47,377 bases of DNA from an uncultured Gammaproteobacteria bacterium (GTDB taxonomy: Bacteria; Patescibacteriota; Patescibacteriia; Patescibacteriales; UBA12465): the NCBI GenBank assembly GCA_964448505.1, contig CAYUWA010000005.1, positions 2,726 through 50,102 on the forward strand, read 5' to 3'. The notes below the pieces were generated by a model, which saw nothing but the letters and a program-made list of their open reading frames with translations, searched no databases and had not been told where the DNA came from. Below are positions 1 to 44,583 of this stretch, one piece after another. The position numbers and the translations under genes are program-made. How positions within the stretch are numbered: the first letter of the stretch is position 1; every line of letters starts with the position of its first letter.

Positions 1-55
1 GGTAGTACGCATGCATGGGGTGCATGTAGCCCGGGTTCAATTCCCGGCACCCCGA
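1..55 (+). tRNA. tRNA-Pro(GGG), 3' portion only, truncated by the window edge
   Basis: Anticodon stem catgc/gcatg with loop atGGGgt. T-arm ccggg-ttcaatt-cccgg. 3' acceptor caccccg plus discriminator a, implying the C1:G72 pair typical of bacterial tRNA-Pro. No encoded CCA. Confidence 0.7.
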
Positions 56-11347: not shown

Positions 11348-11728
11348 TTATCGGCTTTTTTTATAGCTTATTAAAAATAATTCTAAGACGATAAAGATAA
11401 CTATTAGGAGAGTAAGGTTAAGCCAACTAAAAAGATGTTTTGATTTTAAAAATAAAAGGGAAATAATAAATAGGGAAAACAAAAATGATTGGCGAAAAGC
11501 TAGGCGCACCAGATTAAAGGCTAATTCCTTCTTCATTACGCCGAAACGAACTAAGAATCCAATTAATGCCCCTGTTCCGCTTAACGATAAAAAGAGCGAA
11601 AGATAAAACAATAAAAAGCCAATCCAATTAGTCGCTCCCGGATCAATCATCCCGGCGACAAAAATAAATAGACCCCAACAAAAAGCCGTTAGAACCGCCA
11701 TCACTAATAAATAACTTCTCAGTGTCAT
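11348..11728 (-). CDS. Small polytopic membrane protein, function unknown
   Basis: Four predicted hydrophobic helices. Its start overlaps the valS stop by 4 nt (ATGA), suggesting translational coupling. Confidence 0.5.
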   Translation of the reverse strand: MTLRSYLLVMAVLTAFCWGLFIFVAGMIDPGATNWIGFLLFYLSLFLSLSGTGALIGFLVRFGVMKKELAFNLVRLAFRQSFLFSLFIISLLFLKSKHLFSWLNLTLLIVIFIVLELFLISYKKSR

Positions 11729-18381: not shown

Positions 18382-19134
18382 TTATTTTATAATTTCTCCC
18401 TCAACCGTACCGCCAGGAACAACTAAATTATCTTTACTTCTAAAAGTTACGAGTTGTTGCAGAGCGGTTAAAAGAGTAATAACAAACCAATAAAGCGTTA
18501 ACCCTCCCGGTAAAGAAATGCCGATAAAAATAGTAATCGCCGGCATAAAATAAAGCATCTGCTTATTCATAATCGCCATCATATTTTCTTCTTTGCCCTC
18601 GGCGGGTTTATTTGTCTTTTTCTTGGACATCATCATTTTAGCTTGCCAAAACTGCGCTAACCCGGCTAAAACCGCGATATAAATATTTGGTTTAGCTAAA
18701 TCTAGAAAACCGAACGATATAGTATTGATAATCTCCGGACGAGGAATAAAAGAATAAACCAAACCTAGATTATTTGAAACACCGTCCTGAAAGACTCTAT
18801 AAACTGCCCACAAAAAAGGTAATTGAATTAAAAGGGGGAGACAAGAAGAAAACGGATTAACTTTATATTCCTTATATAATGCCATTGTTGCCTGGCTTAA
18901 AGCAACTTTATCCGCGGCATATTTTTTCTTAAGTTCATCAATCTTTGGCTGTAAATCTTGCAAAGCTTTTTGTGATTTAATCGCTTTGCTCCCTAGGGGC
19001 CAAAAAATAAGCTTAATACAAATTGTTAAAAGAATAATTGAGACTCCAAAATCATTAAAAGAAATAGTATTATAGAGAAATACTAATAAATTCAAAATCG
19101 GTTGATAAAAGATAACCGTAATGATGTGCGCCAT
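18382..19134 (-). CDS. yidC: Membrane protein insertase YidC (short, Oxa1-like form)
   Basis: Five-TM core, KSQKALQDLQPKIDELKKKY, PFSSCLPLLIQLPFL. Position is downstream of rnpA-yidD. Confidence 0.9.
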   Translation of the reverse strand: MAHIITVIFYQPILNLLVFLYNTISFNDFGVSIILLTICIKLIFWPLGSKAIKSQKALQDLQPKIDELKKKYAADKVALSQATMALYKEYKVNPFSSCLPLLIQLPFLWAVYRVFQDGVSNNLGLVYSFIPRPEIINTISFGFLDLAKPNIYIAVLAGLAQFWQAKMMMSKKKTNKPAEGKEENMMAIMNKQMLYFMPAITIFIGISLPGGLTLYWFVITLLTALQQLVTFRSKDNLVVPGGTVEGEIIK

Positions 19135-19153
19135 AAAATTTAAGTTTTAATTA

Positions 19154-19411
19154 TTACTTAAGCGGATCGTTTCCTCCTTTATTCCAAGGATTGCATCGCA
19201 TAACCCGCCAGATTGTTTTTATTCCTCCTTTTATAATACCATACTTTTCTATTGCCTGTGCACCATACTCCGCACAACTAGGATAAAAACGGCAAAAACC
19301 ATGTGGATACATTGTTTTCAGCGGTCCGTGATCAAATGATAGGGTCTTTTGGTAAATCCTAATTAAACGAACGACCACCTTCTTCGGAAAATTCATTAAA
19401 AAAATATACAT
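19154..19411 (-). CDS. yidD: Membrane protein insertion efficiency factor YidD
   Basis: Hallmark CRFYPSCAEYGAQAIEKYG...RCNPW. Confidence 0.9.
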   Translation of the reverse strand: MYIFLMNFPKKVVVRLIRIYQKTLSFDHGPLKTMYPHGFCRFYPSCAEYGAQAIEKYGIIKGGIKTIWRVMRCNPWNKGGNDPLK

Positions 19412-19420
19412 ATACCCAGT

Positions 19421-19765
19421 TTACTTCTTATATAAGCCTAATTTCTTAAACCCAGCTCTGAGAAAGACTTCAAGGTCCTTAAAGTCCAAACTAATCGCCG
19501 GTTTTAAGACGATAATTACTAAATCAAACCCCGGTTTAAGCAAACTAAGTTCTGTTTGTATAATTTCCCTTATTCTTCTTTTTAAAAGATTTCTATCAAC
19601 CGCTTTTTTGCTTACCTTAGTGCTAATAAGTATCCCAAAGCGCGATTCTTTCAAGCTTGTAGATAGTGCTTTAAACCCTAAAAAGCCACTATAAAAAGAT
19701 TGACCAGTCTTAAATATCTGATCAAACTCTTTATCTTTATTTATTCTATTTTCTCTGTTGAGCAT
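19421..19765 (-). CDS. rnpA: Ribonuclease P protein component
   Basis: Basic 114-aa protein with KKAVDRNLLKRRIRE (RNR-type motif). Position is between rpmH and yidD. Confidence 0.9.
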   Translation of the reverse strand: MLNRENRINKDKEFDQIFKTGQSFYSGFLGFKALSTSLKESRFGILISTKVSKKAVDRNLLKRRIREIIQTELSLLKPGFDLVIIVLKPAISLDFKDLEVFLRAGFKKLGLYKK

Positions 19766-19781
19766 TTACGCTATAAATAAG

Positions 19782-19919
19782 CTATTTTGAAAGTTTTACG
19801 CGTCCTTTGTCTCGGCGTCGTTTTAAAACAACACGTCCGTCTTCAGTCTGCATTCTCTTTAAAAATCCGTGCTTTTTGCTGGCTCTTTTTTTATTCGGTT
19901 GGTATGTTCTCTTCGGCAT
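19782..19919 (-). CDS. rpmH: 50S ribosomal protein L34 (45 aa; below the ORF-track cutoff, found by hand translation)
   Basis: Translates to [45 protein letters not shown], the canonical L34 signature. Sits immediately upstream of rnpA. Confidence 0.9.
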
Positions 19920-20010
19920 AAGAATATTTTATTCATTTATTATCGTTTTTATACGATAACACTTTTATTTGTCCAAGTCAATAATGATAATGCCGTTCCC
20001 CAAATTAGAC

Positions 20011-20061
20011 TTATTCACCGTTTGTTCACATATTTTTAACAACTACACTCCTTGTGGAAAA
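20011..20061. promoter_or_regulatory. DnaA-box-like cluster upstream of dnaA
   Basis: TTATTCACC (20011-20019), TTGTTCACA (20022-20030), and TGTGGAAAA (20053-20061), whose reverse complement is TTTTCCACA. Each has one or two mismatches to TTATCCACA. Confidence 0.4.
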
Positions 20062-20139
20062 ACCCCTTATCTAATATAATAGAGCTAAGTTTATCTTCTC
20101 AGAAAAACCCCTTTATTAAGCTTAATTCTTAAACTACTT

Positions 20140-21531
20140 ATGAATAATGAACAAGTTTGGCAGGCTATTTTAGGTGAAATAGAAATAACCTTATCCAGAG
20201 CAAATTTCGTTACTTGGTTTAAAGATACTTTTATTTCCTCATTTGAAAATGAACGCGTTGTTGTTTGTGTCCCAAATGCTTTTGTTAAGAAGTGGTTAGA
20301 AGAAAAATATCATAAAAATATTTTAAGCGCTTTAGAAAACGTTACAAAACAGGAAATAAAAGAAATAATATATAAAATTGAATTGAAAAAGGGAAATAAT
20401 CCAACCTTTAAAATAAACGATACTCCTCTAGCTCAAGTCCCGGAAAATACGGCAGCAACAAGCACTAAAAGGGAAAACAATTCTAACAGTGTCCAAACCA
20501 ACCGCTTTGGATTAAATCCAAAATACTTATTTGAGAACTTTGTTGTCGGCAAAGGAAACGAGCTCGCACATGCGGCTTGCCTTGCGGTTGTTAATAATCT
20601 AGGAAAATCGTATAATCCACTATTTATTTACGGCGGAGTCGGACTTGGTAAAACCCATTTATTACAAGCTATCGGAAATGAAGTTGCTAAAAGAACCGAT
20701 AAAATACTTTATACGACTAGCGAAAAGTTTACCAATAATTATATTCAAGCGGTTACAACCGGAAAGGCTAAAGAGTTTAAAAATCTTTATCGTAATGTAG
20801 ACCTCTTGTTAATTGATGATATTCAATTTATGGGAGGGAAAGATGGAACACAAGAAGAATTCTTCCATACTTTTAATGAACTACAACAAAATGACAAACA
20901 GATTGTTCTTACTTCCGACCGTCCGCCAAAGTCTATTCCGGCGATAGAAAAAAGATTAATTTCTAGGTTTGAGTCCGGCATGGTCGCAGACGTCGGCAAG
21001 CCCGATATTGAGACTAAAATTGCAATTTTAGAAAAAAAATCAATTGAAAAAGGTTTTCCTCTTGAAAAAGATGTATTAGCTTATATTGCCGACCACGTCC
21101 AAAATAATATTAGAGAATTGGAGGGGGCTTTAATAAAAGTTATAGTTTCCCATCAATTCAAAAATATAACACCAACTATAAAATCCGTAAAAGAAATTCT
21201 CGGAGACTTTATTTCCAATATTCAAACCCGGTCGCTATCCCCACGCGATATTATAGAAGCGGTCGCCAAATTTTATAATATCTCTAATAAAGATATAACC
21301 GGAAACAGTCGTAAAAAAGAATTGGTTTGGCCAAGACAAATTGCTGTTTATATTATTAGAGAGGAGTTAAACACCTCCTACCCAACTATAGGCAATGAGC
21401 TGGGAGGGCGAGATCACACAACCGCTATGCACGCTTATAATAAGGTTTACCAAGAGGTTAAAGAAAACGGTAATGAAAAAATTAAACAAGAGCTTGAGTC
21501 AATTAAACAATTATTGACATCGGTTTATTAA
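20140..21531 (+). CDS. dnaA: Chromosomal replication initiator protein DnaA
   Basis: AAA+ Walker A GGVGLGKTHL, Walker B LLIDDIQF, sensor regions, and domain IV ending GGRDHTTAMHA. Confidence 0.97.
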   Translation: MNNEQVWQAILGEIEITLSRANFVTWFKDTFISSFENERVVVCVPNAFVKKWLEEKYHKNILSALENVTKQEIKEIIYKIELKKGNNPTFKINDTPLAQVPENTAATSTKRENNSNSVQTNRFGLNPKYLFENFVVGKGNELAHAACLAVVNNLGKSYNPLFIYGGVGLGKTHLLQAIGNEVAKRTDKILYTTSEKFTNNYIQAVTTGKAKEFKNLYRNVDLLLIDDIQFMGGKDGTQEEFFHTFNELQQNDKQIVLTSDRPPKSIPAIEKRLISRFESGMVADVGKPDIETKIAILEKKSIEKGFPLEKDVLAYIADHVQNNIRELEGALIKVIVSHQFKNITPTIKSVKEILGDFISNIQTRSLSPRDIIEAVAKFYNISNKDITGNSRKKELVWPRQIAVYIIREELNTSYPTIGNELGGRDHTTAMHAYNKVYQEVKENGNEKIKQELESIKQLLTSVY

Positions 21532-26828: not shown

Positions 26829-26900
26829 GCGCCCGTAGTTCAATGGATAGAACACCAGCCTTCTAAGCTGGCCACGAGGGTTCGATTCCCCCCGGGCGTA
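26829..26900 (+). tRNA. tRNA-Arg(UCU)
   Basis: 72 nt. Acceptor gcgcccg/cgggcgt (G1-U72 wobble). Anticodon stem ccagc/gctgg with loop ctTCTaa. T-loop ttcgatt. No CCA. Confidence 0.85.
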
Positions 26901-26909
26901 CGTAATTAT

Positions 26910-29315: not shown

Positions 29316-30227
29316 TTAGCTCATGAATTCGGCCATTGAAGTAACCGGTTCATAAACAATGCATCCGAATAAACTTTGGTGTTTATTATCGGCCAACCAG
29401 ATTCCTCCAGCGTATTCGTAACAACGCTTTTTTACGTTGAAGAGAAAGAACACCCGGTATATCATATCCATATTGGTTTTGTCTGTTGGCAGCCGAAACC
29501 TCATCGGTTCTATATAATCCTGGATATATAGATCCCTTTCTTCTTCAATAATTTTCAGGATTTTTGACTTTGTGGTGATCCCGCCATTTTTATTACTTTC
29601 TTTTCTTCTCATCCTTTTCGGGATCCAAACGGCTGTTCCGTTTGGGGAGAGAAGCCCGGTTTGAGTTATCCTTGTTTGGCTCTTTAAGCAAAAAGATTCC
29701 TCAAGGTCTAGCCGAGAGCCCTTTTCAAGGACCGAAGAGTCTAATTCCTCCCAGAGATCTAAGGAGAGACCGTAACTGCGGTCTCCTCTTTCCAGACAAG
29801 TGCTAACCGACCTATGTTGTAAAGATTCTAAGTCGCTAATGTTTTTCGTGCTTTCCAGCAGAATTAATTGGTTAGTGGCTTTCGCTTCACGTACAGAAAG
29901 TGTCTCTAAAAAATGGTTTGCTTCTCTTTGGGATACCAGTTTAAATTTAGGCCAGTACTGGCGACACTTGTTCCAAGCATTGATAAAAGTTGAATCATAT
30001 TCCAAGAGATCAGTATCTCTCGGAGCTTCATCAATTTCAAGAATTGATAGGACTCCTCTATTATTAATAGTACAATCCGTACAAACAATAAAAGAGGGAA
30101 CGCCGTAGTTCTGATTAACCCAAGTATTTTCCTTGGGGAAACATTTTGACCATCTGTCGATCAAATTTCTTAACTTGTGCAGTTCCGTTTGGTTTAGCAC
30201 TTCCTGGTTTAATGAAAAATTTTTCAT
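29316..30227 (-). CDS. Orphan 303-aa protein, function unknown; possible circularly permuted ATP-grasp-like fold
   Basis: Long uninterrupted ORF with its own terminator. It looks richer in G+C and in Cys/Trp/Arg than its neighbours. LYIQDYIEP...YRVFFLF sits near the C-terminus and SILEIDEAPR near the N-terminus. Confidence 0.6.
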   Translation of the reverse strand: MKNFSLNQEVLNQTELHKLRNLIDRWSKCFPKENTWVNQNYGVPSFIVCTDCTINNRGVLSILEIDEAPRDTDLLEYDSTFINAWNKCRQYWPKFKLVSQREANHFLETLSVREAKATNQLILLESTKNISDLESLQHRSVSTCLERGDRSYGLSLDLWEELDSSVLEKGSRLDLEESFCLKSQTRITQTGLLSPNGTAVWIPKRMRRKESNKNGGITTKSKILKIIEEERDLYIQDYIEPMRFRLPTDKTNMDMIYRVFFLFNVKKRCYEYAGGIWLADNKHQSLFGCIVYEPVTSMAEFMS

Positions 30228-31387: not shown

Positions 31388-32761
31388 TTAAAACATTAAA
31401 TTTAGTACTTCATCTCGGCATTTTTCCATTATTGTTGCGTTAATCGCCTCAAGATTTAATCGCATCTTGTCTTCCGTGTTTGAACCGCGAACATTAAACC
31501 AAAAATCATTATACTCAACACTTATCCCGTCAAGTTTAAAAATTTTGCCATCAGAATATTTTTCCTCAATTCGTTTTAAAACGGCTTCTTTGTCTTTTAC
31601 ATCACGGTTTATTTCTCCGGAAAAAACATATTTGTTGTATAGAGCGATATAATCTGAAATCTTTTGGCCGCAATTTGAGAATTCTTGAAGAAGCTTTAGA
31701 ATAATAATAATTGGATATTCAAAACAACCTATTTCATAATTAATAAAGAAGTGCCCGGATGATTCACCGGCAAAATAAATATCATCTTTTAGCATCTGTT
31801 CCTTTATTAAAGAGTGGCCGACCCGAGTCATTATTGGTACGCCATTATTTTCTACAATTAGATCAGTCGTTATTTTTCCCGGACGAACGTCATAACCAAT
31901 TCTAGAACCGGGCTTATCTTCTAAAAATAGTTTAGCCAATAAACCTCTAATAAGAGCCGGGCTTATCGTTTCTCCTTTATCGTCAACAAAGAAAATTCGG
32001 TCGCCGTCTCCATCGGTTGATATTCCTAAATCAGCCCGGTTTTTAATTACCTCTTTCTTTAATTGCTCTAGATTCTCTTCTTTTATCGGGTCAGCTTCAT
32101 GCGCCGGAAAGGAGCCGTCTAGCTCAAGGTTTAAAGTAATAAATTCGCCGGGAATATTTTTAAAGATATTTTTCAAATAAATCGCCCCCATCCCGTTTGC
32201 CGAATCGCTTACTATTTTTAGCGGCTTAATATTTTGTAAATTAACAACACCTTTGGCATTTTCCAGTTCTTGTTCGGCTATATCATTATTTTGAATTATC
32301 GTTCCCTTAATTTCGCTAGGAATAAATCTATTCTCTAGAATCTTTTCTTTCAAAAATTCCATGCCGGTTTCGCCGCTTATCGGCACGCCCTTTTTTCTAA
32401 CCAATTTAAATCCATTCCATTCTTTAGGATTATGAGAAGCGGAAACCATTATTCCTCCGTCGCAATTTAGTTTTCCAACCGCAAAGTAAAGACTCGGGGT
32501 AGCGGCTAGGCCGATATCAATAACATTTGCGCCGGCACTTATTAACCCTCTTATCAAATTATCTTTTAAAAGAGGAGATGATAAACGCATATCGTAAGCT
32601 ACGGCGACCGTTAAGACAGACCCCTTTATATAATCAGAATCGTTTTTTCTTAATTCAACAAACGCTAGTCCTAGAAGATAAGCTAGCTCGTTATCAAAAT
32701 CTTCTCCATAGATTCCTCTAATGTCGTAGGCTTTAAATATTTTTGGATTGACTTGTAACAT
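31388..32761 (-). CDS. Phosphoglucomutase/phosphomannomutase family protein
   Basis: Active-site serine loop SASHNPKEWNGFK and metal loop GISTDGDGDRIFF. GESSGH. Confidence 0.9.
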   Translation of the reverse strand: MLQVNPKIFKAYDIRGIYGEDFDNELAYLLGLAFVELRKNDSDYIKGSVLTVAVAYDMRLSSPLLKDNLIRGLISAGANVIDIGLAATPSLYFAVGKLNCDGGIMVSASHNPKEWNGFKLVRKKGVPISGETGMEFLKEKILENRFIPSEIKGTIIQNNDIAEQELENAKGVVNLQNIKPLKIVSDSANGMGAIYLKNIFKNIPGEFITLNLELDGSFPAHEADPIKEENLEQLKKEVIKNRADLGISTDGDGDRIFFVDDKGETISPALIRGLLAKLFLEDKPGSRIGYDVRPGKITTDLIVENNGVPIMTRVGHSLIKEQMLKDDIYFAGESSGHFFINYEIGCFEYPIIIILKLLQEFSNCGQKISDYIALYNKYVFSGEINRDVKDKEAVLKRIEEKYSDGKIFKLDGISVEYNDFWFNVRGSNTEDKMRLNLEAINATIMEKCRDEVLNLMF

Positions 32762-33872
32762 AAAAAATAATTCCTCCTAAACCAAAGCAGATTGCAAATA
32801 ATTTTATAATCCAGCCGATATAGGGGATTGAAAATAATAAGAAAATAATTATGATGCCGACAAGAAGCGGCCAGAAATTATTAGGAAGTTCTTTTTTAAT
32901 AATCTTTTTAGTAATAAATTGACCGAGCAAAATTGCGCTAAATATTGGCGCCAAATAAATTATTATAAGCCAAGCGGTTAAAAGAATGAGGGCTAGGGGC
33001 AATCCGATTATCGTAATTGCCAGAAGAATAGAAATTGGCGGGATTATTAAAATTGCTATTAGCCCGGGAATTAAAGTTTTTAAAGATTTCTCTTTAGCAG
33101 AACTTAATATTTTCTGGGTTAGCTTTGTTAACGGGAATATTAATAATAGACCAACTAAAAATGAAGCTAAAATCTGAAATATTATTTTCCAAAAATAATC
33201 GGCAAATAAATTATCCGTTTTAACTTTTGGGGCTTTCATTTCCGTCTTTCCAGAAACAGTTGCTTGCTCGGAAATCTGAGCTTGTTTATTTGAAGTATAA
33301 TTTAAATCGCCATTAATTATTGTTTCCGGAGAAACGATTAGACCTTGGTTTAAATAGGAATCGGATATTTCTACATTAACGCTTTTGCCGACTTTTCCGG
33401 CAAGCAGCAACTGGCTTGCGCCTCCGCTTAAGCCGCCGTTAATATTTCCTCTCATTTGAATATTAGTAGCCATTAAAAGAGCATCCCAACCGATGCGAGA
33501 TTGATTTCCAATTGAAATATCAGAAGCAAATAAGTTAATATTTCTAGCCACTGTTGAATTTAGAGTAATAGAGGATCCGGCAGCTCGAATATTTCCTCCG
33601 ACAACGCCACTTATATTGATTGTTTGAGCGGCAATAATAATATCACCCTCAACTTGTCCGTTAACGATTATTGTTTGAGCGGCGGCGATTAAATCTCCAC
33701 TAATAACACCGTCTATAGTTATTGTTTTTCCGGCGGCATATAAGTTCCCGCTAACAATCTCGTCTTTAGCGATATAAATTGAATCTCCGCTTTTTGTGTC
33801 CGCAGCTTTAAGTGCAATTAATGGTATTAACAAAAGTGCGAAAGAAAGCGCGATAATAAGTTTCTTTTTCAT
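32733..33872 (-). CDS. Signal-peptide protein with bactofilin-like beta-helix repeats and a polytopic C-terminal membrane domain
   Basis: MKKKLIIALSFALLLIPLIALKA leader. Repeats such as IDGVISGDLIAAAQTIIVNGQVEGDIIIAAQTINISGVVGGNIRAAG. Four to five C-terminal TM helices. Confidence 0.6.
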   Translation of the reverse strand: MKKKLIIALSFALLLIPLIALKAADTKSGDSIYIAKDEIVSGNLYAAGKTITIDGVISGDLIAAAQTIIVNGQVEGDIIIAAQTINISGVVGGNIRAAGSSITLNSTVARNINLFASDISIGNQSRIGWDALLMATNIQMRGNINGGLSGGASQLLLAGKVGKSVNVEISDSYLNQGLIVSPETIINGDLNYTSNKQAQISEQATVSGKTEMKAPKVKTDNLFADYFWKIIFQILASFLVGLLLIFPLTKLTQKILSSAKEKSLKTLIPGLIAILIIPPISILLAITIIGLPLALILLTAWLIIIYLAPIFSAILLGQFITKKIIKKELPNNFWPLLVGIIIIFLLFSIPYIGWIIKLFAICFGLGGIIFYVTSQSKNI

Positions 33873-33942: not shown

Positions 33943-35577
33943 ATGGCAAGAGCAATTGAAATACTGCTTAAAACAGGAGTTAAGAAGCTAAAAACCAGAG
34001 ATGATTTAGAGGATTTAAAACGGAATATTTGCCGGGAATATAAGCTTAAATCTATTTTGAACTCCGATATATTAAAGGAATATCGGAGACTTTTGGTTTC
34101 TGGCGAAATCAAGAGAATTGAGTCTTTGGAGAAGATTTTGCGTAAGCGTTCGGTTCGGACTATGTCGGGGATTGCGCCGGTTGCTGTTTTGACCAAATCT
34201 TATCCTTGCCCGGGAGAGTGTGCTTATTGTCCTCATGAAAGCGACGTTCCGACCAGTTATTTATCTAATGAACCGGCGGTAATGCGGGCTATCCGCTGTG
34301 GCTATGACCCATATAAGCAAGTAGTTCTTAGATTAAAAGCTTTAGAAAATAATGGCCATGAACCGACTAAAATAGAGTTGATTGTTATTGGCGGTACCTG
34401 GAGTTATTTACCGACCAAATATAAGTATTGGTATATTTTGAACTGCTTTAAAGCGGCTAATGATTTTACTAAGATAAAAAAACTCGTTTTTAAAAGAGCG
34501 GCCGGAGAAGAAAAATTTAAATTAGGATTAAAAGCACCCTATAAGCAGAATCTTAGCTTAAAAGAATTAAAAAAAGAGCTTTTAAAAGAACAAAAAATAA
34601 ACGAACGAGCGCGTTATAATTTAATCGGTGTTACGCTTGAGACCAGGCCTGATTATATAAATAAAAAAGAGCTTTTAGAGATGAGAGATTTAGGCTGTAC
34701 TCGAGTTGAAATCGGCGTGCAGGCGATTGACGATAAAATTTTGGCTTTAAATAAACGAGGCCACGGGGTTTTAGAAATTTCTGAAGCGACCAAACTTTTA
34801 AAAGAATATGGTTTCAAAGTGACCTATCACTTGATGCCGGCTCTTCCTGGGGCGACGCCTAAGAAAGATTTAGAAATGTTCAAACAATTATTTTCCGACG
34901 AAAGATTTCAGCCGGATCAAATAAAATTTTATCCAACAGTCGTAACTAAAGGAAGTTTATTATACAAATGGTACAAAGCCGGAAAATATAAACCGTATTC
35001 TGACCGAGTTTTGCAAGACTTGATTATTAATTGTAAGGCGGCGGTTCCGGAGTATGTTCGGATTATTCGATTAATTAGAGATATTCCCGAAGAATCAATT
35101 ATTGCTGGCAATAAAATTACCAATCTGAGGCAAGTCCTAAAAGATAGAGGCGTCAAGTGTTCATGTATCAGATGCCGGGAGTCTAAAGAAGAAACAAAAA
35201 TTAAAAAATATAAATTAAAAATAATAAAATATTCAGCTTCAATCGGAACAGAGTATTTTATTTCTGCCGAAAGCACTGATGGAAAAATATTATATGCCTT
35301 TTGTCGCTTGCGCCTTGATAGTAATAGCCCAATTTCCGAAGCGATTATCCGCGAGCTGCATGTTTACGGACAGCTTGTTGCCGTTGGCGGTGATAAGAAG
35401 GTTCAGCATAGCGGACTCGGTAAAAAATTATTGGAAGAAGCCGAAAAAATCGCTTCTAAGAATAAGTGTCAAAATATCGCCGTTATTTCCGGAGTTGGCG
35501 TTAGGGGATATTATAAAAAACTTGGGTATAGGACTTATAATTCGTACTTAATTAAAAAATTGAAAGGAAATCTATAA
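33943..35577 (+). CDS. elp3: Elp3-family radical-SAM/GNAT enzyme (tRNA U34 carboxymethylation, Elongator catalytic subunit homologue)
   Basis: RSVRTMSGIAPVAVLTKSYPCPGECAYCP (Cys cluster), SYLSNEPAVMRA, DPYKQV, ELIVIGGTWS, TLETRPDYI, RVEIGVQ. C-terminal GNAT RELHVYG...QHSGLGKKLLEEAEKIA. Confidence 0.9.
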   Translation: MARAIEILLKTGVKKLKTRDDLEDLKRNICREYKLKSILNSDILKEYRRLLVSGEIKRIESLEKILRKRSVRTMSGIAPVAVLTKSYPCPGECAYCPHESDVPTSYLSNEPAVMRAIRCGYDPYKQVVLRLKALENNGHEPTKIELIVIGGTWSYLPTKYKYWYILNCFKAANDFTKIKKLVFKRAAGEEKFKLGLKAPYKQNLSLKELKKELLKEQKINERARYNLIGVTLETRPDYINKKELLEMRDLGCTRVEIGVQAIDDKILALNKRGHGVLEISEATKLLKEYGFKVTYHLMPALPGATPKKDLEMFKQLFSDERFQPDQIKFYPTVVTKGSLLYKWYKAGKYKPYSDRVLQDLIINCKAAVPEYVRIIRLIRDIPEESIIAGNKITNLRQVLKDRGVKCSCIRCRESKEETKIKKYKLKIIKYSASIGTEYFISAESTDGKILYAFCRLRLDSNSPISEAIIRELHVYGQLVAVGGDKKVQHSGLGKKLLEEAEKIASKNKCQNIAVISGVGVRGYYKKLGYRTYNSYLIKKLKGNL

Positions 35578-35584
35578 AATCTGT

Positions 35585-36592
35585 ATGGAAGATAACATAA
35601 AATTTTCCGGGCTTGGTCCGATTTTAAAAAAGTTAGCGCCAAAAGTCGGGGCGAAAATTATAGTTGAGCCAAAATGGGGACTCGTCGGACAAATAAGCTT
35701 TTCTAATGGCGTTAAAAGATATTTTAGGTATTCAAGCCTAGACCTTAATCCGCTTGGTGCTTCGGCAATTTCTAAAGATAAAGATTACGCCAATTTTTTT
35801 ATGAGCAAAATGGGTTACCCGATAATTTCCGGGAAAGCCTTTTGTTCTCCTATTTGGGCCAAAACCATAGGACAAAAACAAAAAGATCAAGAAGCGTATC
35901 AGTATGCCAAAGAAATTGGTTTCCCGCTTATCGCTAAGCCTAATAGCGGTAGTCAGGGAAATGGAGTTTTTCTTGCCAATAATAAAATAGAATTAAAGCG
36001 AGCTCTGAAATATATATTTGATAGAGATAATATTGCGCTTATTCAAAAATTTATTTCCGGAAACGATTATCGCATCGTCGTCTTGGACAATAAAATAATT
36101 TCCGCCTATCAAAGAATCCCGTTTTGTATTATCGGTAATTCTAAGGATACAATTGATAAATTAATTAAAAATAAATTAAAAAACCTAGCGAGTTTAAATC
36201 GTCCGGTTAATGTTAAAGTAGACGATTTAAGAGTAATCCAAAATCTAAAAAGACAAAAATTGAATTTAAAATCAGTTTTGAAAAAAGACAAAAAAATATA
36301 TCTTTTAAATAACGCTAATCTTTCTTCGGGCGGAGAGGCAATTGAGGTAACGAAAAAGATCCATCCGGACTTTAAGAAATTAGCGATTAAGCTCACCAAA
36401 GATATGGGGCTTCGTCTTTGCGGCGTAGATTTGATAGTTCAGGGGGAAATTAGTTTGCCGGCTAAGAAATATCAAGTTATAGAAATTAATGCGGCACCGG
36501 GACTAGACCACTATATTAAACTGGGACGCGCACAAGAAAAAATCGTAGAGAGGATGTATTTAGAGGTTTTAAAAGCGATGAAAAGAGCTTAA
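35585..36592 (+). CDS. Stand-alone ATP-grasp ligase resembling the cyanophycin-synthetase ATP-grasp domain (RimK-like superfamily)
   Basis: GFPLIAKPNSGSQGNGV, IQKFISGNDYRIVVLDNKIISAYQR, NLSSGGEAIEVTKKIHPDFKKLAIKLTKDMGLRLCGVDLIV, VIEINAAPGL. Starts 7 nt after the Elp3 stop. Confidence 0.85.
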   Translation: MEDNIKFSGLGPILKKLAPKVGAKIIVEPKWGLVGQISFSNGVKRYFRYSSLDLNPLGASAISKDKDYANFFMSKMGYPIISGKAFCSPIWAKTIGQKQKDQEAYQYAKEIGFPLIAKPNSGSQGNGVFLANNKIELKRALKYIFDRDNIALIQKFISGNDYRIVVLDNKIISAYQRIPFCIIGNSKDTIDKLIKNKLKNLASLNRPVNVKVDDLRVIQNLKRQKLNLKSVLKKDKKIYLLNNANLSSGGEAIEVTKKIHPDFKKLAIKLTKDMGLRLCGVDLIVQGEISLPAKKYQVIEINAAPGLDHYIKLGRAQEKIVERMYLEVLKAMKRA

Positions 36593-36730
36593 AAAATCGG
36601 AATTTGTTAAATTTTAATAAGTATGTAATAATTATTTTATGTTGATTACTAAAAACATTACAACTTGGTCGGGGTTTGTTTTAACCAGTTCAGTTTGTTG
36701 ACCCGGAGAACTTTTTGATTTTTCTTAAAG

Positions 36731-36752
36731 CGTCTCTCTGGGACGTTTTTTT
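36731..36752 (+). terminator. Terminator downstream of the Elp3/ATP-grasp operon
   Basis: cgtctc / gggacg stem followed by T7. Confidence 0.55.
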
Positions 36753-40930: not shown

Positions 40931-41623
40931 ATGAAAGTAAATTTTCAGAAAGAACTATTAGAAATTGTTAAACGGAATTATGAAGAAATTTCCGAGAGTT
41001 TTAATTTAACGAGGCGCAAAGAAATTTGGCCGGAAATAAAAATTCTAGCGGAAGGAATAAAAGAGGGCGATAAGATTTTGGACTTAGGCTGCGGAAACGG
41101 ACGGTTAGTCGAGGCCTTAAAAGATAAAACACTAGAATATTTAGGAATTGATGCCAGCTCCGAATTAATTTCCAAAGCGAAACTAAATTATCCGGGCTAT
41201 AGTTTTTTAGTTCAAGATATTATTGACTTAAAATTCAATAATGATAAAAAATATAATTATATTTTTTGTTTAGCGGTTTTACAGCATATTCCGGGAACGG
41301 ACTTAAGAATTAGCGTTCTTAAAAGGATGAAAGAGTTATTACTCCCGGGAGGAAAAATCATCGTCAGTAATTGGAATCTTTGGCGGAGTAAAAAACACCG
41401 CATTCTTTTAATTAGAAATTTTTTAACAAAACTTCTGGGGAAAAACGAACTTGATTTCGGTGATATTATCTTTCCTTGGAAAAACTCGCAGGGAGAAGAA
41501 GTAAGTACAAGATATTACCATGGTTTTACCGCCGGGGAATTAAGGAGCCTTTCTAAAAGGGCAGGTTTTAAAATAGAAAAGTTATATAAAGATAATTACA
41601 ATTATTGGCTAATATTAAAGTAA
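40931..41623 (+). CDS. Trm9/ALKBH8-like class I SAM-dependent methyltransferase (candidate tRNA cm5U34 to mcm5U34 methyltransferase)
   Basis: YEEISESFNLTRRKEIWPEI resembles Trm9 Y-EIA-HFS-TR---WP. ILDLGCGNGR is the SAM motif I. CLAVLQHIP...LLPGGKIIVSNWNLW, IIFPW, and RYYHGFTAGELRSL...NYWLILK resemble RYYH-F-EGEL...NW-V---K. Starts 3 nt after the recQ stop. Confidence 0.75.
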   Translation: MKVNFQKELLEIVKRNYEEISESFNLTRRKEIWPEIKILAEGIKEGDKILDLGCGNGRLVEALKDKTLEYLGIDASSELISKAKLNYPGYSFLVQDIIDLKFNNDKKYNYIFCLAVLQHIPGTDLRISVLKRMKELLLPGGKIIVSNWNLWRSKKHRILLIRNFLTKLLGKNELDFGDIIFPWKNSQGEEVSTRYYHGFTAGELRSLSKRAGFKIEKLYKDNYNYWLILK

Positions 41624-41657: not shown

Positions 41658-41687
41658 TTGACACCCCCTGGGGGTATATGATAAAAT
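41658..41687 (+). promoter_or_regulatory. Promoter with an embedded palindromic operator (CsoR-family type)
   Basis: TTGACA (41658-41663), 18-nt spacer, TAAAAT (41682-41687). The spacer is filled by the perfect palindrome ACCCCC-T-GGGGGT (41663-41675). Confidence 0.6.
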
Positions 41688-41693
41688 AAACTC

Positions 41694-41939
41694 ATGAAAA
41701 CAAATGAACAAAGAATAAATAATATTATCGGTCAGTTAGAGGGGATTAAAAGAATGTTATCTACGGAGAAACGCGATTGTTTTTCACTTATTACTCAGCT
41801 TAAAGCGACTAAGTCTGCCCTTGGCTCGCTAATGGAGAAAGTAATTAGCGACGAGTTCGATCATTGTTTCTTAAACGATAAAACAAGCGGTAAAGAAAAA
41901 ATGGAAAAAATATTTTCCGAGATTATAAAAAATAATTAA
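41694..41939 (+). CDS. CsoR/RcnR/FrmR-family (DUF156) metal- or thiol-sensing transcriptional repressor
   Basis: RINNIIGQLEGIKRML...RDCFSLITQLKATKSALGSLMEKVISDEFDHCF, with typical helix-bundle length and conserved Cys positions. Confidence 0.85.
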   Translation: MKTNEQRINNIIGQLEGIKRMLSTEKRDCFSLITQLKATKSALGSLMEKVISDEFDHCFLNDKTSGKEKMEKIFSEIIKNN

Positions 41940-41957
41940 AAATTAAAAATAAAATTT

Positions 41958-42290
41958 ATGTCTAACGCTTTAGAAGTAAACAAAGATAGTTTTAAAAATG
42001 AAGTTCTAGAAAGTCCGGTTCCAGTTTTGGTTGATTTTTGGGCACCTTGGTGTATGCCTTGTAAAATGATGGCGCCGATTTTAGATGAACTTTCCGGTGA
42101 GTTAGCAGGAAAAGTAAAAATCGTTAAAGTAAATACGGAAGACGGTACCAATCAAGACTTAGCGATTGAATATCAAATTCAAAGCATTCCTAATATGAAG
42201 CTTTTTAAGGGCGGTAATATTATTGGTGAATTTATTGGTTTAAGAAACAAGGAAATATTAAAAGGAGAAATTGAGGACTTAATTAAATAA
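41958..42290 (+). CDS. trxA: Thioredoxin (active site WCMPC)
   Basis: VLVDFWAPWCMPCKMMAPILDE...KVNTE...IQSIPNMKLFKGG. Confidence 0.9.
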   Translation: MSNALEVNKDSFKNEVLESPVPVLVDFWAPWCMPCKMMAPILDELSGELAGKVKIVKVNTEDGTNQDLAIEYQIQSIPNMKLFKGGNIIGEFIGLRNKEILKGEIEDLIK

Positions 42291-42294
42291 TAAT

Positions 42295-43515
42295 ATGAGT
42301 ATCTTTAATGATAATTTAGAACGCTTGAAAGAAATACAAAGTTTAGAAGGAATTTCCGATGCGCAAATGAGTAAATTATTAAGTCCGGTCCAATCTAATT
42401 ATTCCGAACTTAAAATTGGTGATAAGATTTATCCGGCCTGGCGAATCATTTTTAATCGCGCTCTCGGTCCGGGAAAAGGAGGAATCAGATTTCATCCCGA
42501 TGTTAGCGAGGATGAAGTAAAATCCCTGGCTTTCTGGATGGCGCTTAAGAACTCGTTAGCCGATATTCCTTATGGAGGAGCCAAGGGCGGAGTAAAATTT
42601 AATCCGAAAGAAACAAGTTTGGCAGATCTTCAGGAAATAAGCCGTAAATATATTCAAGCATTTGGCGACTTTCTAGGGCAAGATAAAGATATACCGGCGC
42701 CAGACGTCTATACCAATGGCCAAATTATGTCTTGGATGCTTGATGAGTTTGAAAAGAAGGTCGGTCATCATGAGCCGGGAATGATTACCGGTAAACCGGT
42801 TGAGCTTGGTGGAATAGCCATGCGCGGCGATGCAACCGCTCAAGGAGGTTATATTGTTACTAAAGAATTAGCCGCCAAGTTTTTATCTGAGAAAAAACAG
42901 ATTAGAGTTGTTGTTCAGGGTTTTGGTAATGCCGGATTATTTATGACTGAGAAATTATTTGATGACGGATTTAAAATAATCGCCGTTTCCGATAGTCAGG
43001 GCGGAATTTATAAGGAAGAAGGATTAAATATCAAAGAGCTAATTGATTTTAAAAATTCCGGGCAGGCCGTTGGAAATTATACGGACGGTACTAAGATAAG
43101 TAATCAAGAATTATTGGAGCTTGATACAGATATTTTAGTTTTAGCGGCGCTTGAGAATCAAATTACCAAAGATAACGCCGACAAGATTAAGGCAGGGTTT
43201 TTAGTTGAGCTAGCCAATGGTCCGATTACCTTTGATGCCGATAAAATATTGGCAGAAAAAAAGAAAATAGTTGTTCCGGATATTCTCGCCAATTCCGGCG
43301 GGGTTATTGTCAGTTATTTTGAATGGGCACAAAACAGGACTGGACAAATTCTAGACGATGAGTATCTTCGTAATTTATTGGAGAAAAAAATGAGAGTAAA
43401 TTGGCAGAGAGTTTATTCTAAATACGAAGAAAAAAATAAGGGAATAACTTTGCGCCAAGCCGCGTATGCTCTGGCGATTTCAAGAATATTAGCGGCGGAA
43501 AAATATAGAGGATAA
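42295..43515 (+). CDS. Glu/Leu/Phe/Val dehydrogenase family protein, probably glutamate dehydrogenase
   Basis: GPGKGGIRFHP, IPYGGAKGG, NAD(P) fold VVQGFGNAGL, ANSGGVIVSYFEW. Confidence 0.9.
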   Translation: MSIFNDNLERLKEIQSLEGISDAQMSKLLSPVQSNYSELKIGDKIYPAWRIIFNRALGPGKGGIRFHPDVSEDEVKSLAFWMALKNSLADIPYGGAKGGVKFNPKETSLADLQEISRKYIQAFGDFLGQDKDIPAPDVYTNGQIMSWMLDEFEKKVGHHEPGMITGKPVELGGIAMRGDATAQGGYIVTKELAAKFLSEKKQIRVVVQGFGNAGLFMTEKLFDDGFKIIAVSDSQGGIYKEEGLNIKELIDFKNSGQAVGNYTDGTKISNQELLELDTDILVLAALENQITKDNADKIKAGFLVELANGPITFDADKILAEKKKIVVPDILANSGGVIVSYFEWAQNRTGQILDDEYLRNLLEKKMRVNWQRVYSKYEEKNKGITLRQAAYALAISRILAAEKYRG

Positions 43516-43528
43516 ATAATAGAACGAT

Positions 43529-43561
43529 AAAAAAAGACCTTCCTGGACGGAAGGTCTTTTT
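43529..43561. terminator. Bidirectional terminator
   Basis: gaccttcc / ggaaggtc stem flanked by A7 and T5. Confidence 0.8.
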
Positions 43562-43578: not shown

Positions 43579-44583
43579 TTAGTTGCAGGCGGCGTCGGTA
43601 GCCGTATTGGCTGTTCCTGAGCCGAAACCCGGAGCAGGGGAATCGCTTGATAAGGTTGTTGCACATTCTTTTGGTTCTTCAGAGAAGGCACCGCAGACAG
43701 TCTTTAATAAGCTAGCAGAATCACGTCCTGATTGTGCTTCAGTTCCGTTTATAACTAAAGTTGGAGAGCCGGCAACGCCATACTTTGTATTATCTTCTTT
43801 ATAAATATCAAATCCCGGGTAGCTTCCTTTGAAACCAACTTTGTTAGTAAAGTTCTCGCTTACTTTAAATTTCTTGTCGGTTGATTTAACGCAAGATTCA
43901 ACTTTTGATTTGTTTACTCCAGCTGTTTCAAGACAAGGAGCAGATTCACCGCTTACCAAGAAACATTTTAGGTAGGCATTAAGTTTAGTTGATTGGTCTT
44001 TTTGAATACAGTATTGAGCTAATTGTTCTTGTAATTCTTTTTCACCGTGCATCGCGTAGTCAACAAACTTTAACTCAAAATCAATTTTCTTGCCCAGTAA
44101 CTCAACAACCGGAAGCATTCCTTTTTCAATTTGTGTACCGTATGGGCAATGGCTCATAACGAATAACTCAACAACCGGCTTATCAGTTTTTGGAAGAACA
44201 GCTGAAGGAGCGGAATCGGTCGGGGTACCGTTAGCATCGGTTTCTACCGAAGCGCCGGTTTTAACTTCCAACGCTTGAGGAAAGAATAATTTTCCGTCCT
44301 TGGTTAAATACGATTCTACAACATCACTAACGATATCAACTTTTAATTTATAAAGACCGTATTCAGTTGTTATTTCTTTAATAGTTGCTTTTGTATCGCC
44401 TTGCATTAAGAACTTATTGATAAATTCTTCGGCTTGGGTTTTTGCTTCTGCTTTGCTCAAGTTATTGAAAGATCCTCTAAAGGAGAAATAACCGATTAAA
44501 GCTAGGGCAATAACCAAAACGATAGGGAGCAGTACCCTTACTAAGAACTTTCGTTCTTTTAATTTTTTTAGTAGTTTCTTCAT
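43579..44583 (-). CDS. Membrane-anchored secreted thioredoxin-fold (DsbA-like) protein with a monothiol CPYG motif
   Basis: N-terminal TM, a linker, then VELFVMSHCPYGTQ at the expected CxxC position. Many additional Cys in the C-terminal half. Confidence 0.7.
   Translation of the reverse strand: MKKLLKKLKERKFLVRVLLPIVLVIALALIGYFSFRGSFNNLSKAEAKTQAEEFINKFLMQGDTKATIKEITTEYGLYKLKVDIVSDVVESYLTKDGKLFFPQALEVKTGASVETDANGTPTDSAPSAVLPKTDKPVVELFVMSHCPYGTQIEKGMLPVVELLGKKIDFELKFVDYAMHGEKELQEQLAQYCIQKDQSTKLNAYLKCFLVSGESAPCLETAGVNKSKVESCVKSTDKKFKVSENFTNKVGFKGSYPGFDIYKEDNTKYGVAGSPTLVINGTEAQSGRDSASLLKTVCGAFSEEPKECATTLSSDSPAPGFGSGTANTATDAACN

Follow-up and report, generated by a model that had tools for sequence, protein, structure and literature searches.

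The 47,377-nucleotide stretch analysed here (the window), from contig CAYUWA010000005.1 of GenBank assembly GCA_964448505.1, encodes two proteins that appear to act together on the wobble uridine of tRNA. One is confirmed, from its sequence matches, as a full-length, true Elp3. The other, judged by sequence, family profile, predicted fold, essential residues and gene linkage, is an orthologue of Trm9. We consider it probable that the pair makes 5-carboxymethyluridine (cm5U) and then 5-methoxycarbonylmethyluridine (mcm5U) at tRNA position 34 (U34). The two genes are:

33943..35577, + strand: elp3, predicted tRNA U34 carboxymethyl synthase, a 544-amino-acid radical S-adenosylmethionine (SAM)/GNAT protein, assigned from TIGR01211, Pfam and Protein Data Bank (PDB) matches

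40931..41623, + strand: putative Trm9-type SAM-dependent methyltransferase of 230 amino acids, assigned from sequence, family profile, fold, residues and linkage to elp3

An earlier interpretation, made from the DNA letters without database searches (the sequence-only reading), had assigned the 544-residue open reading frame (ORF) to Elp3 on the basis of short motifs. All of these motifs were found in the translation: CPGECAYCP (C89/C93/C96), SYLSNEPAVMRA, DPYKQV, IGGTWS and QHSGLGKKL. Pfam models identified Radical_SAM, Radical_SAM_C and GNAT domains, and ELP3_N gave a weak match below the cutoff (E=0.003). The NCBIfam ELP3 model, TIGR01211, scored 537.3 bits, above its curated cutoff of 350, with an alignment that runs nearly end to end (residues 14-540 of the protein, positions 9-522 of the 522 in the model). 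HemN-like and other radical SAM models in NCBIfam scored far under their cutoffs. With this TIGR01211 score and a GNAT domain present, the assignment to Elp3, as opposed to a generic HemN-like radical SAM enzyme, stands.

In a PDB sequence search every match was an Elp3 protein. The top match was Elp3 from Dehalococcoides mccartyi (DmcElp3, 5L7J, E=2.4e-115). Another stand-alone Elp3 (6IA8 and entries related to it) matched at about 1e-103, and entries for eukaryotic Elongator complex protein 3 (8PTX, 8AVG and 6QK7) at 1e-94 to 1e-84. We take 6IA8, 6IAD and 6IAZ to be Methanocaldococcus infernus Elp3 (MinElp3). By these comparisons the window protein is a stand-alone enzyme of the archaeal/eukaryotic full-length type.

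It is extremely improbable that this radical SAM protein is something other than a functional Elp3 orthologue, whether an MnmL/YhcC-type enzyme that follows MnmEG in the pathway or a protein acetyltransferase. It has a full GNAT domain, the acetyl-CoA pocket residues of Elp3 and the Elp3 N-terminus, and the window carries no mnmE or mnmG. In favour of an MnmL-like enzyme are the rank of TIGR01212 (MnmL/YtqA) as the second-best NCBIfam match and the pairing of MnmL genes, too, with a methyltransferase gene, mnmM (bioRxiv 10.64898/2026.05.18.725915). However, TIGR01212 stayed below its cutoff (76.7 of 180 bits) and aligned with residues 222-399 only; given this and the GNAT domain, we rejected an MnmL/YhcC identity.

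Elp3 residues with tested functions (PMC6367351) were transferred to the window protein through its alignment with DmcElp3. The following elements were located:

34207..34230, + strand: radical-SAM [4Fe-4S] motif C89-x3-C93-x2-C96 (CPGECAYC), aligned with DmcElp3 C23/C27/C30

35158..35175, + strand: cysteine cluster C406/C408/C411, aligned with DmcElp3 C310/C312/C315

35260..35562, + strand: GNAT/KAT acetyl-CoA domain with QHSGLGKKL, from Pfam GNAT models on residues 440-533

33943..34143, + strand: basic N-terminal extension (residues 1-67, including 18 Lys/Arg), predicted to be a tRNA-binding arm; the DmcElp3 alignment starts at residue 68

The central linker region of Elp3 holds a Zn ion (PMC6367351), and C406/C408/C411 are the putative ligands at this site. 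Residues K143, K292, E471 and Y523, assigned to the acetyl-CoA pocket and to hydrolysis, are retained and correspond to DmcElp3 K77, K193, E386 and Y441, residues that have been tested functionally (PMC6367351). All Fe-S, putative Zn and acetyl-CoA pocket residues are thus kept, and the window Elp3 is apparently functional. Like MinElp3, it is a single polypeptide without Elp1, Elp2 or Elp4-6 that combines radical SAM and KAT domains with an extended basic N-terminus, and it keeps the QH motif and the equivalents of MinElp3 K150, K266 and Y517 (PMC6367351); it differs in having a bacterial host. It shares with DmcElp3 a bacterial origin, a stand-alone form and about 47% identity on the core, and relative to that protein it contains an insert of about 40 residues (175-214). 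DmcElp3 does not have the N-terminal extension seen in the window protein; its tRNA binding is weak and its activity poor (PMC6367351). The N-terminal region is required for high-affinity tRNA binding in MinElp3 (PMC6367351), and its absence is thought to account for the weak activity of DmcElp3 (PMC6367351, PMC7663514).

The identification of the 230-residue protein as Trm9-like, also proposed in the sequence-only reading, is supported by sequence, profile and fold, each of which returned Trm9 as the top match. Yarrowia Trm9 (5CM2_Z, E=5.6e-14) is the best PDB sequence match and the only one to extend across the whole protein, taking in a C-terminal PW...RYYH...N segment. With a profile of 45 family sequences, Trm9 was recovered at E=6.6e-24, eleven orders of magnitude ahead of the runner-up (6e-13), which aligned with the Rossmann core only. 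An AlphaFold2 model (predicted local distance difference test score, pLDDT, of 91.5) searched against the PDB with Foldseek again placed 5CM2_Z first (E=3.7e-16, template modelling (TM) score 0.84 normalised to the target), with a small lead over other class I methyltransferases. In ScTrm9, mutation of R29, D72, H116, W145, W168, R241, Y243 or N271 abolishes or strongly impairs activity (PMC4678810). All eight are kept in the window protein, as R28, D74, H119, W148, W183, R194, Y196 and N224. Among 48 Elp3-linked homologues, the number that keep each residue ranges from 36 to 48.

Public labels for this family are mostly less specific. The NCBI name goes no further than 'class I SAM-dependent methyltransferase', JGI records often read UbiE or UbiG, and the NCBIfam matches are all sub-threshold. 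Together with the small Foldseek margin, this is what would be expected of a generic class I methyltransferase (UbiE/UbiG-like, acting on small molecules or proteins) that lies near elp3 by coincidence. We regard such an identity as very unlikely, given that Trm9 alone aligns from end to end, C-terminal segment included, that the profile gap is so wide, that all eight Trm9 residues are kept and that one JGI record names ALKBH8. Relative to Trm9/ALKBH8 (Yarrowia Trm9-Trm112, 5CM2; Haloferax Trm9), the window methyltransferase has the same fold, full-length alignment and eight active-site residues; it differs in its bacterial host, in an identity of about 24% and in that no Trm112 was detected nearby. 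We are aware of no earlier report of Trm9 or of mcm5U from a bacterium.

The nearest Elp3 proteins (70-84% identity) come from metagenome-assembled genomes of Patescibacteria/Falkowbacteria, and many are already called Elp3 by NCBI. The host is a Patescibacteria bacterium, probably Falkowbacteria-like. A scan for Elp3 over one genome per GTDB species yielded 73 loci, of which about 50 are from Patescibacteria of many classes (42-76% identity), followed by DPANN archaea (38-44%). The sequence-only reading had described Elp3 as sporadic in bacteria; for the lineage of the host this does not hold, as the gene is widespread in Patescibacteria. Eight of the records with Patescibacteria-like Elp3 and synteny (L001, L010, L016, L017, L020, L021, L030 and L070) are titled 'uncultured Gammaproteobacteria bacterium', and these titles look like taxonomic mislabels.

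All window proteins were compared with the 73 loci by tblastn, with counts restricted to loci that have enough flanking sequence. Synteny with the window fades beyond the close clade, with the exception of the methyltransferase. Within the close clade, 16 of 18 loci have the methyltransferase gene 3.8-6.4 kb downstream of elp3 and on its strand, as does the closest relative (L074); in the window's clade glyA, folD and recQ fall between the two, all on one strand. Distant Patescibacteria, with Elp3 at 42-51% identity, mostly carry it directly upstream of elp3 in a divergent, head-to-head arrangement (22 of 27 loci), and at one more locus it adjoins elp3 convergently. The head-to-head pair was also identified in four DPANN loci (L055, L056, L058 and L059, from Aenigmatarchaeota and related lineages). 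Clustering of ORFs within ±4 kb of Elp3 recovered the methyltransferase as the sole other family conserved across deep groups; within this range there was neither a further conserved partner (a thiolation enzyme, for example) nor a conserved small neighbour of elp3. These genomic patterns point to a conserved functional pair in Patescibacteria. Coincidental proximity of a generic methyltransferase is hard to reconcile with a head-to-head pair that persists where Elp3 is only 42-50% identical and other synteny is gone. For Sulfolobus, earlier work had already pointed out that Elp3 and Trm9 genes cluster (PMC6144793).

In the pathway that we propose, the [4Fe-4S] cluster of Elp3 would cleave SAM to form a 5'-deoxyadenosyl radical. 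The GNAT domain would bind acetyl-CoA and hydrolyse it once tRNA had docked on the central cleft and the basic N-terminal arm, and addition of the resulting acetyl radical to C5 of U34 would give cm5U. The Trm9-type enzyme would then methyl-esterify cm5U, using SAM, to the predicted end product, mcm5U, a wobble modification of archaea and eukaryotes. Two tRNA genes with U34 are encoded in the window:

26829..26901, + strand: tRNA-Arg(UCU), candidate substrate, identified with ARAGORN and Rfam; cloverleaf with anticodon loop CU-UCU-AA

15657..15731, + strand: tRNA-Ile(UAU), clean cloverleaf, 74 bits with Rfam

Both were cited in the sequence-only reading as signs of the pathway. They are real cloverleaves but are not evidence for it, because every genome has U34 tRNAs. 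Yeast tRNA-Arg(UCU) carries mcm5U, and by analogy the window tRNA-Arg(UCU) is a plausible substrate. We know of no eukaryote in which tRNA-Ile(UAU) is an Elongator substrate. An isoacceptor with UAU is unusual among bacteria, most of which decode AUA by means of a tRNA-Ile(CAU) that carries the lysidine modification introduced by TilS. The window tRNA-Ile(UAU) would need some means of not reading AUG; no tilS was identified in the window.

Several observations weigh against formation of mcm5U by this pair. Eukaryotic Trm9 and Haloferax Trm9 need Trm112 (PMC4678810, PMC6144793), and a crude six-frame motif scan, which covered neighbourhoods only, detected no Trm112-like ORF in the window or in the 73 loci. 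Elp3 occurs without the methyltransferase in the flank examined at four loci of distant Patescibacteria (L023, L024, L031 and L042) and at two of the close clade (L011 and L021). The elp3 and methyltransferase genes fall in separate predicted transcription units and are probably not co-transcribed in the window's clade. The sole bacterial Elp3 tested so far, DmcElp3, is weakly active (PMC6367351).

Some of the same evidence would suit a scheme in which Elp3 makes cm5U and the linked methyltransferase either yields a different end product or needs a further partner. Candidate products include 5-carbamoylmethyluridine (ncm5U), 5-methoxycarbonylmethyl-2-thiouridine (mcm5s2U, after thiolation) and a new ester or amide. 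We judge this scheme unlikely, since the eight Trm9 residues that hold the uracil ring and the carboxylate of cm5U in place are all conserved. It draws on the lack of a Trm112 signal near the pair in the crude neighbourhood scan and on the behaviour of Haloferax without Trm9, in which cm5U is rapidly turned into other species (PMC6144793). One substitution, of YlTrm9 H126 (ScTrm9 H115) by Gln in the window methyltransferase, could also be taken in its favour, although the ScTrm9 H115A mutant retains most of its activity (PMC4678810).

Genes for mnmE, mnmG and mnmA are absent from the 34 ORFs of the window, to which the search was confined, and from the positions beside yidC/rnpA, where mnmE/mnmG often sit. 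Der matches the MnmE model via its GTPase domain alone, below the cutoff. MnmE/MnmG, which form 5-carboxymethylaminomethyluridine (cmnm5U), and MnmL/MnmM have the same target as that predicted for the Elp3-Trm9 pair, C5 of U34, and would serve the same decoding role. MnmL is likewise a radical SAM enzyme, from a family related to Elp3, and its gene also has a methyltransferase gene as partner. Both the MnmE/MnmG and MnmL/MnmM systems differ from the Elp3-Trm9 pair in chemistry and in protein families. A broader proposal is that the Patescibacteria superphylum uses an Elp3-Trm9 system shared with DPANN archaea instead of MnmE/MnmG, and makes mcm5U34 with a Trm9 that is independent of Trm112. 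We offer this tentatively, as a possibility that is at present rather doubtful. If true, it would constitute the first bacterial mcm5U pathway, provide a stand-alone full-length bacterial Elp3 that is perhaps better suited to biochemistry than DmcElp3, and define a trait of the translation apparatus that links bacteria of the Candidate Phyla Radiation (CPR) to archaea.

The window spans a bacterial replication origin (rnpA, yidC, dnaA and dnaN) and includes further housekeeping genes (bacterial-type topA, pheS/pheT, valS, der, pth, dprA, and genes for PBP1a and an LCP transferase). The genes around elp3 run in the order PGM, bactofilin-domain membrane protein, elp3, glyA, folD, recQ, methyltransferase, trx and gdh, an order conserved in at least 16 related genomes. 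GC content near elp3 (0.36-0.37) is typical of the window. Because GC content is normal and the bacterial synteny is conserved, elp3 is a resident gene and not part of a recent island, in agreement with the sequence-only reading, which had placed it among core bacterial genes.

DPANN archaea share habitats with CPR bacteria, and they have the same Elp3-Trm9 pair. These two facts would be compatible with elp3 being a DPANN archaeal sequence mis-assembled into a bacterial bin, or a very recent horizontal acquisition. We give this almost no credence: the gene lies between bacterial genes on one contig, in an order kept across the related genomes noted above, its GC content is unremarkable, and Patescibacteria Elp3 sequences are set apart from archaeal ones in a rough neighbour-joining tree (503 core columns, without support values). 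Recent acquisition of elp3 is effectively refuted, and an ancient inter-domain transfer is possible.

A phylogeny with Dehalococcoides and archaeal proteins had been suggested in the sequence-only reading. In the rough tree, the Patescibacteria sequences cluster together in a large clade that includes the window protein, and DmcElp3 falls beside Aenigmatarchaeota. DmcElp3 groups outside the Patescibacteria clade, and therefore the window protein is not of a 'Dehalococcoides-type' bacterial Elp3 group. The placement suggests that the elp3 genes of Dehalococcoides and Patescibacteria have separate histories, and the Dehalococcoides/DPANN grouping hints at separate inter-domain transfers.

The kinds of enzyme involved and the annotation of Elp3 in databases are already known. 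A 2020 review of Elongator places bacterial Elp3 in one clade, Dehalococcoides (PMC7663514). Full-text literature searches found no paper tying Elp3 or MnmG to Patescibacteria/CPR bacteria, and Meheust et al. (2019) do not mention Elp3 or MnmG genes. The Trm9 assignment, the conserved pairing and the breadth of the system across Patescibacteria appear to be undescribed in the searchable literature. The window and its relatives show full-length Elp3 as a resident, syntenic gene across a large bacterial group, coupled genetically to an unrecognised Trm9 orthologue. On this basis bacteria are predicted to contain mcm5U-type wobble bases, and the Patescibacteria Elp3 proteins become candidate single-subunit enzymes for mechanistic work. 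The finding also offers a specific annotation for a methyltransferase family that now carries a generic name or is mislabelled UbiE/UbiG, and is relevant to the decoding of split codon boxes in genome-reduced symbionts and to the sharing of genes by CPR bacteria and DPANN archaea.

Consensus promoter and terminator scans predicted three transcription units in the elp3 region: elp3 with an ATP-grasp gene, glyA-folD, and recQ-methyltransferase. The first of these would end at a hairpin found by the consensus scan alone:

36727..36749, + strand: terminator-like hairpin with a T-run, 10-bp stem including 4 G-C pairs; predicted to end the elp3 and ATP-grasp transcript

The ATP-grasp gene (35585-36592, + strand) starts 8 bp past elp3 and is probably co-transcribed with it. 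It encodes a 335-residue stand-alone ligase that is cyanophycin-synthetase/GshAB-like; NCBI labels the family 'cyanophycin synthetase', although the protein consists of the ATP-grasp part only. We considered this protein as a conserved Elp3 partner (a cm5U amide ligase) and rejected it, as the gene adjoins elp3 only in the window and in L074. The gene was not detected near Elp3 in any of the other 73 loci, with a threshold as loose as E<=1. The family to which its product belongs is widespread in Patescibacteria and in other genomes is encoded elsewhere.

On the other side of elp3, 70 bp away and divergent from it, is the gene for the 379-residue membrane protein (32733-33872, - strand), which has a bactofilin-like beta-solenoid N-terminus (DUF8173 in L074). 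It keeps its position beside elp3 in 23 related loci. Immediately after the Trm9-like gene is a compact unit (41694-43515, + strand) that encodes a metal-sensing repressor of the CsoR/RcnR type (81 residues), thioredoxin and glutamate dehydrogenase. The 81-residue ORF had been a candidate for Trm112 and was ruled out by its identification as a CsoR-type repressor. The unit is flanked by a strong promoter-like site (41658-41687) and a bidirectional terminator-like hairpin (43531-43561).

In many bacteria, jag, mnmE or mnmG would be expected after yidC/rnpA. In the origin stretch of the window (18382-20140), yidC and rnpA are followed by genes for a VanW-domain protein and a small heat-shock protein and by tRNA genes, and jag, mnmE and mnmG do not occur there. 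The gap between rnpA and dnaA is 375 bp. A partial tRNA gene at the 5' end of the window (1-55, + strand, 31.8 bits with Rfam) is cut by the window boundary, and is followed by tRNA-Ala(CGC) and tRNA-Pro(CGG). Three ORFs on the - strand, of 126 (11348-11728), 303 (29316-30227) and 334 residues (43579-44583), have no Pfam or NCBIfam match; the last of these is conserved in 11 related loci.

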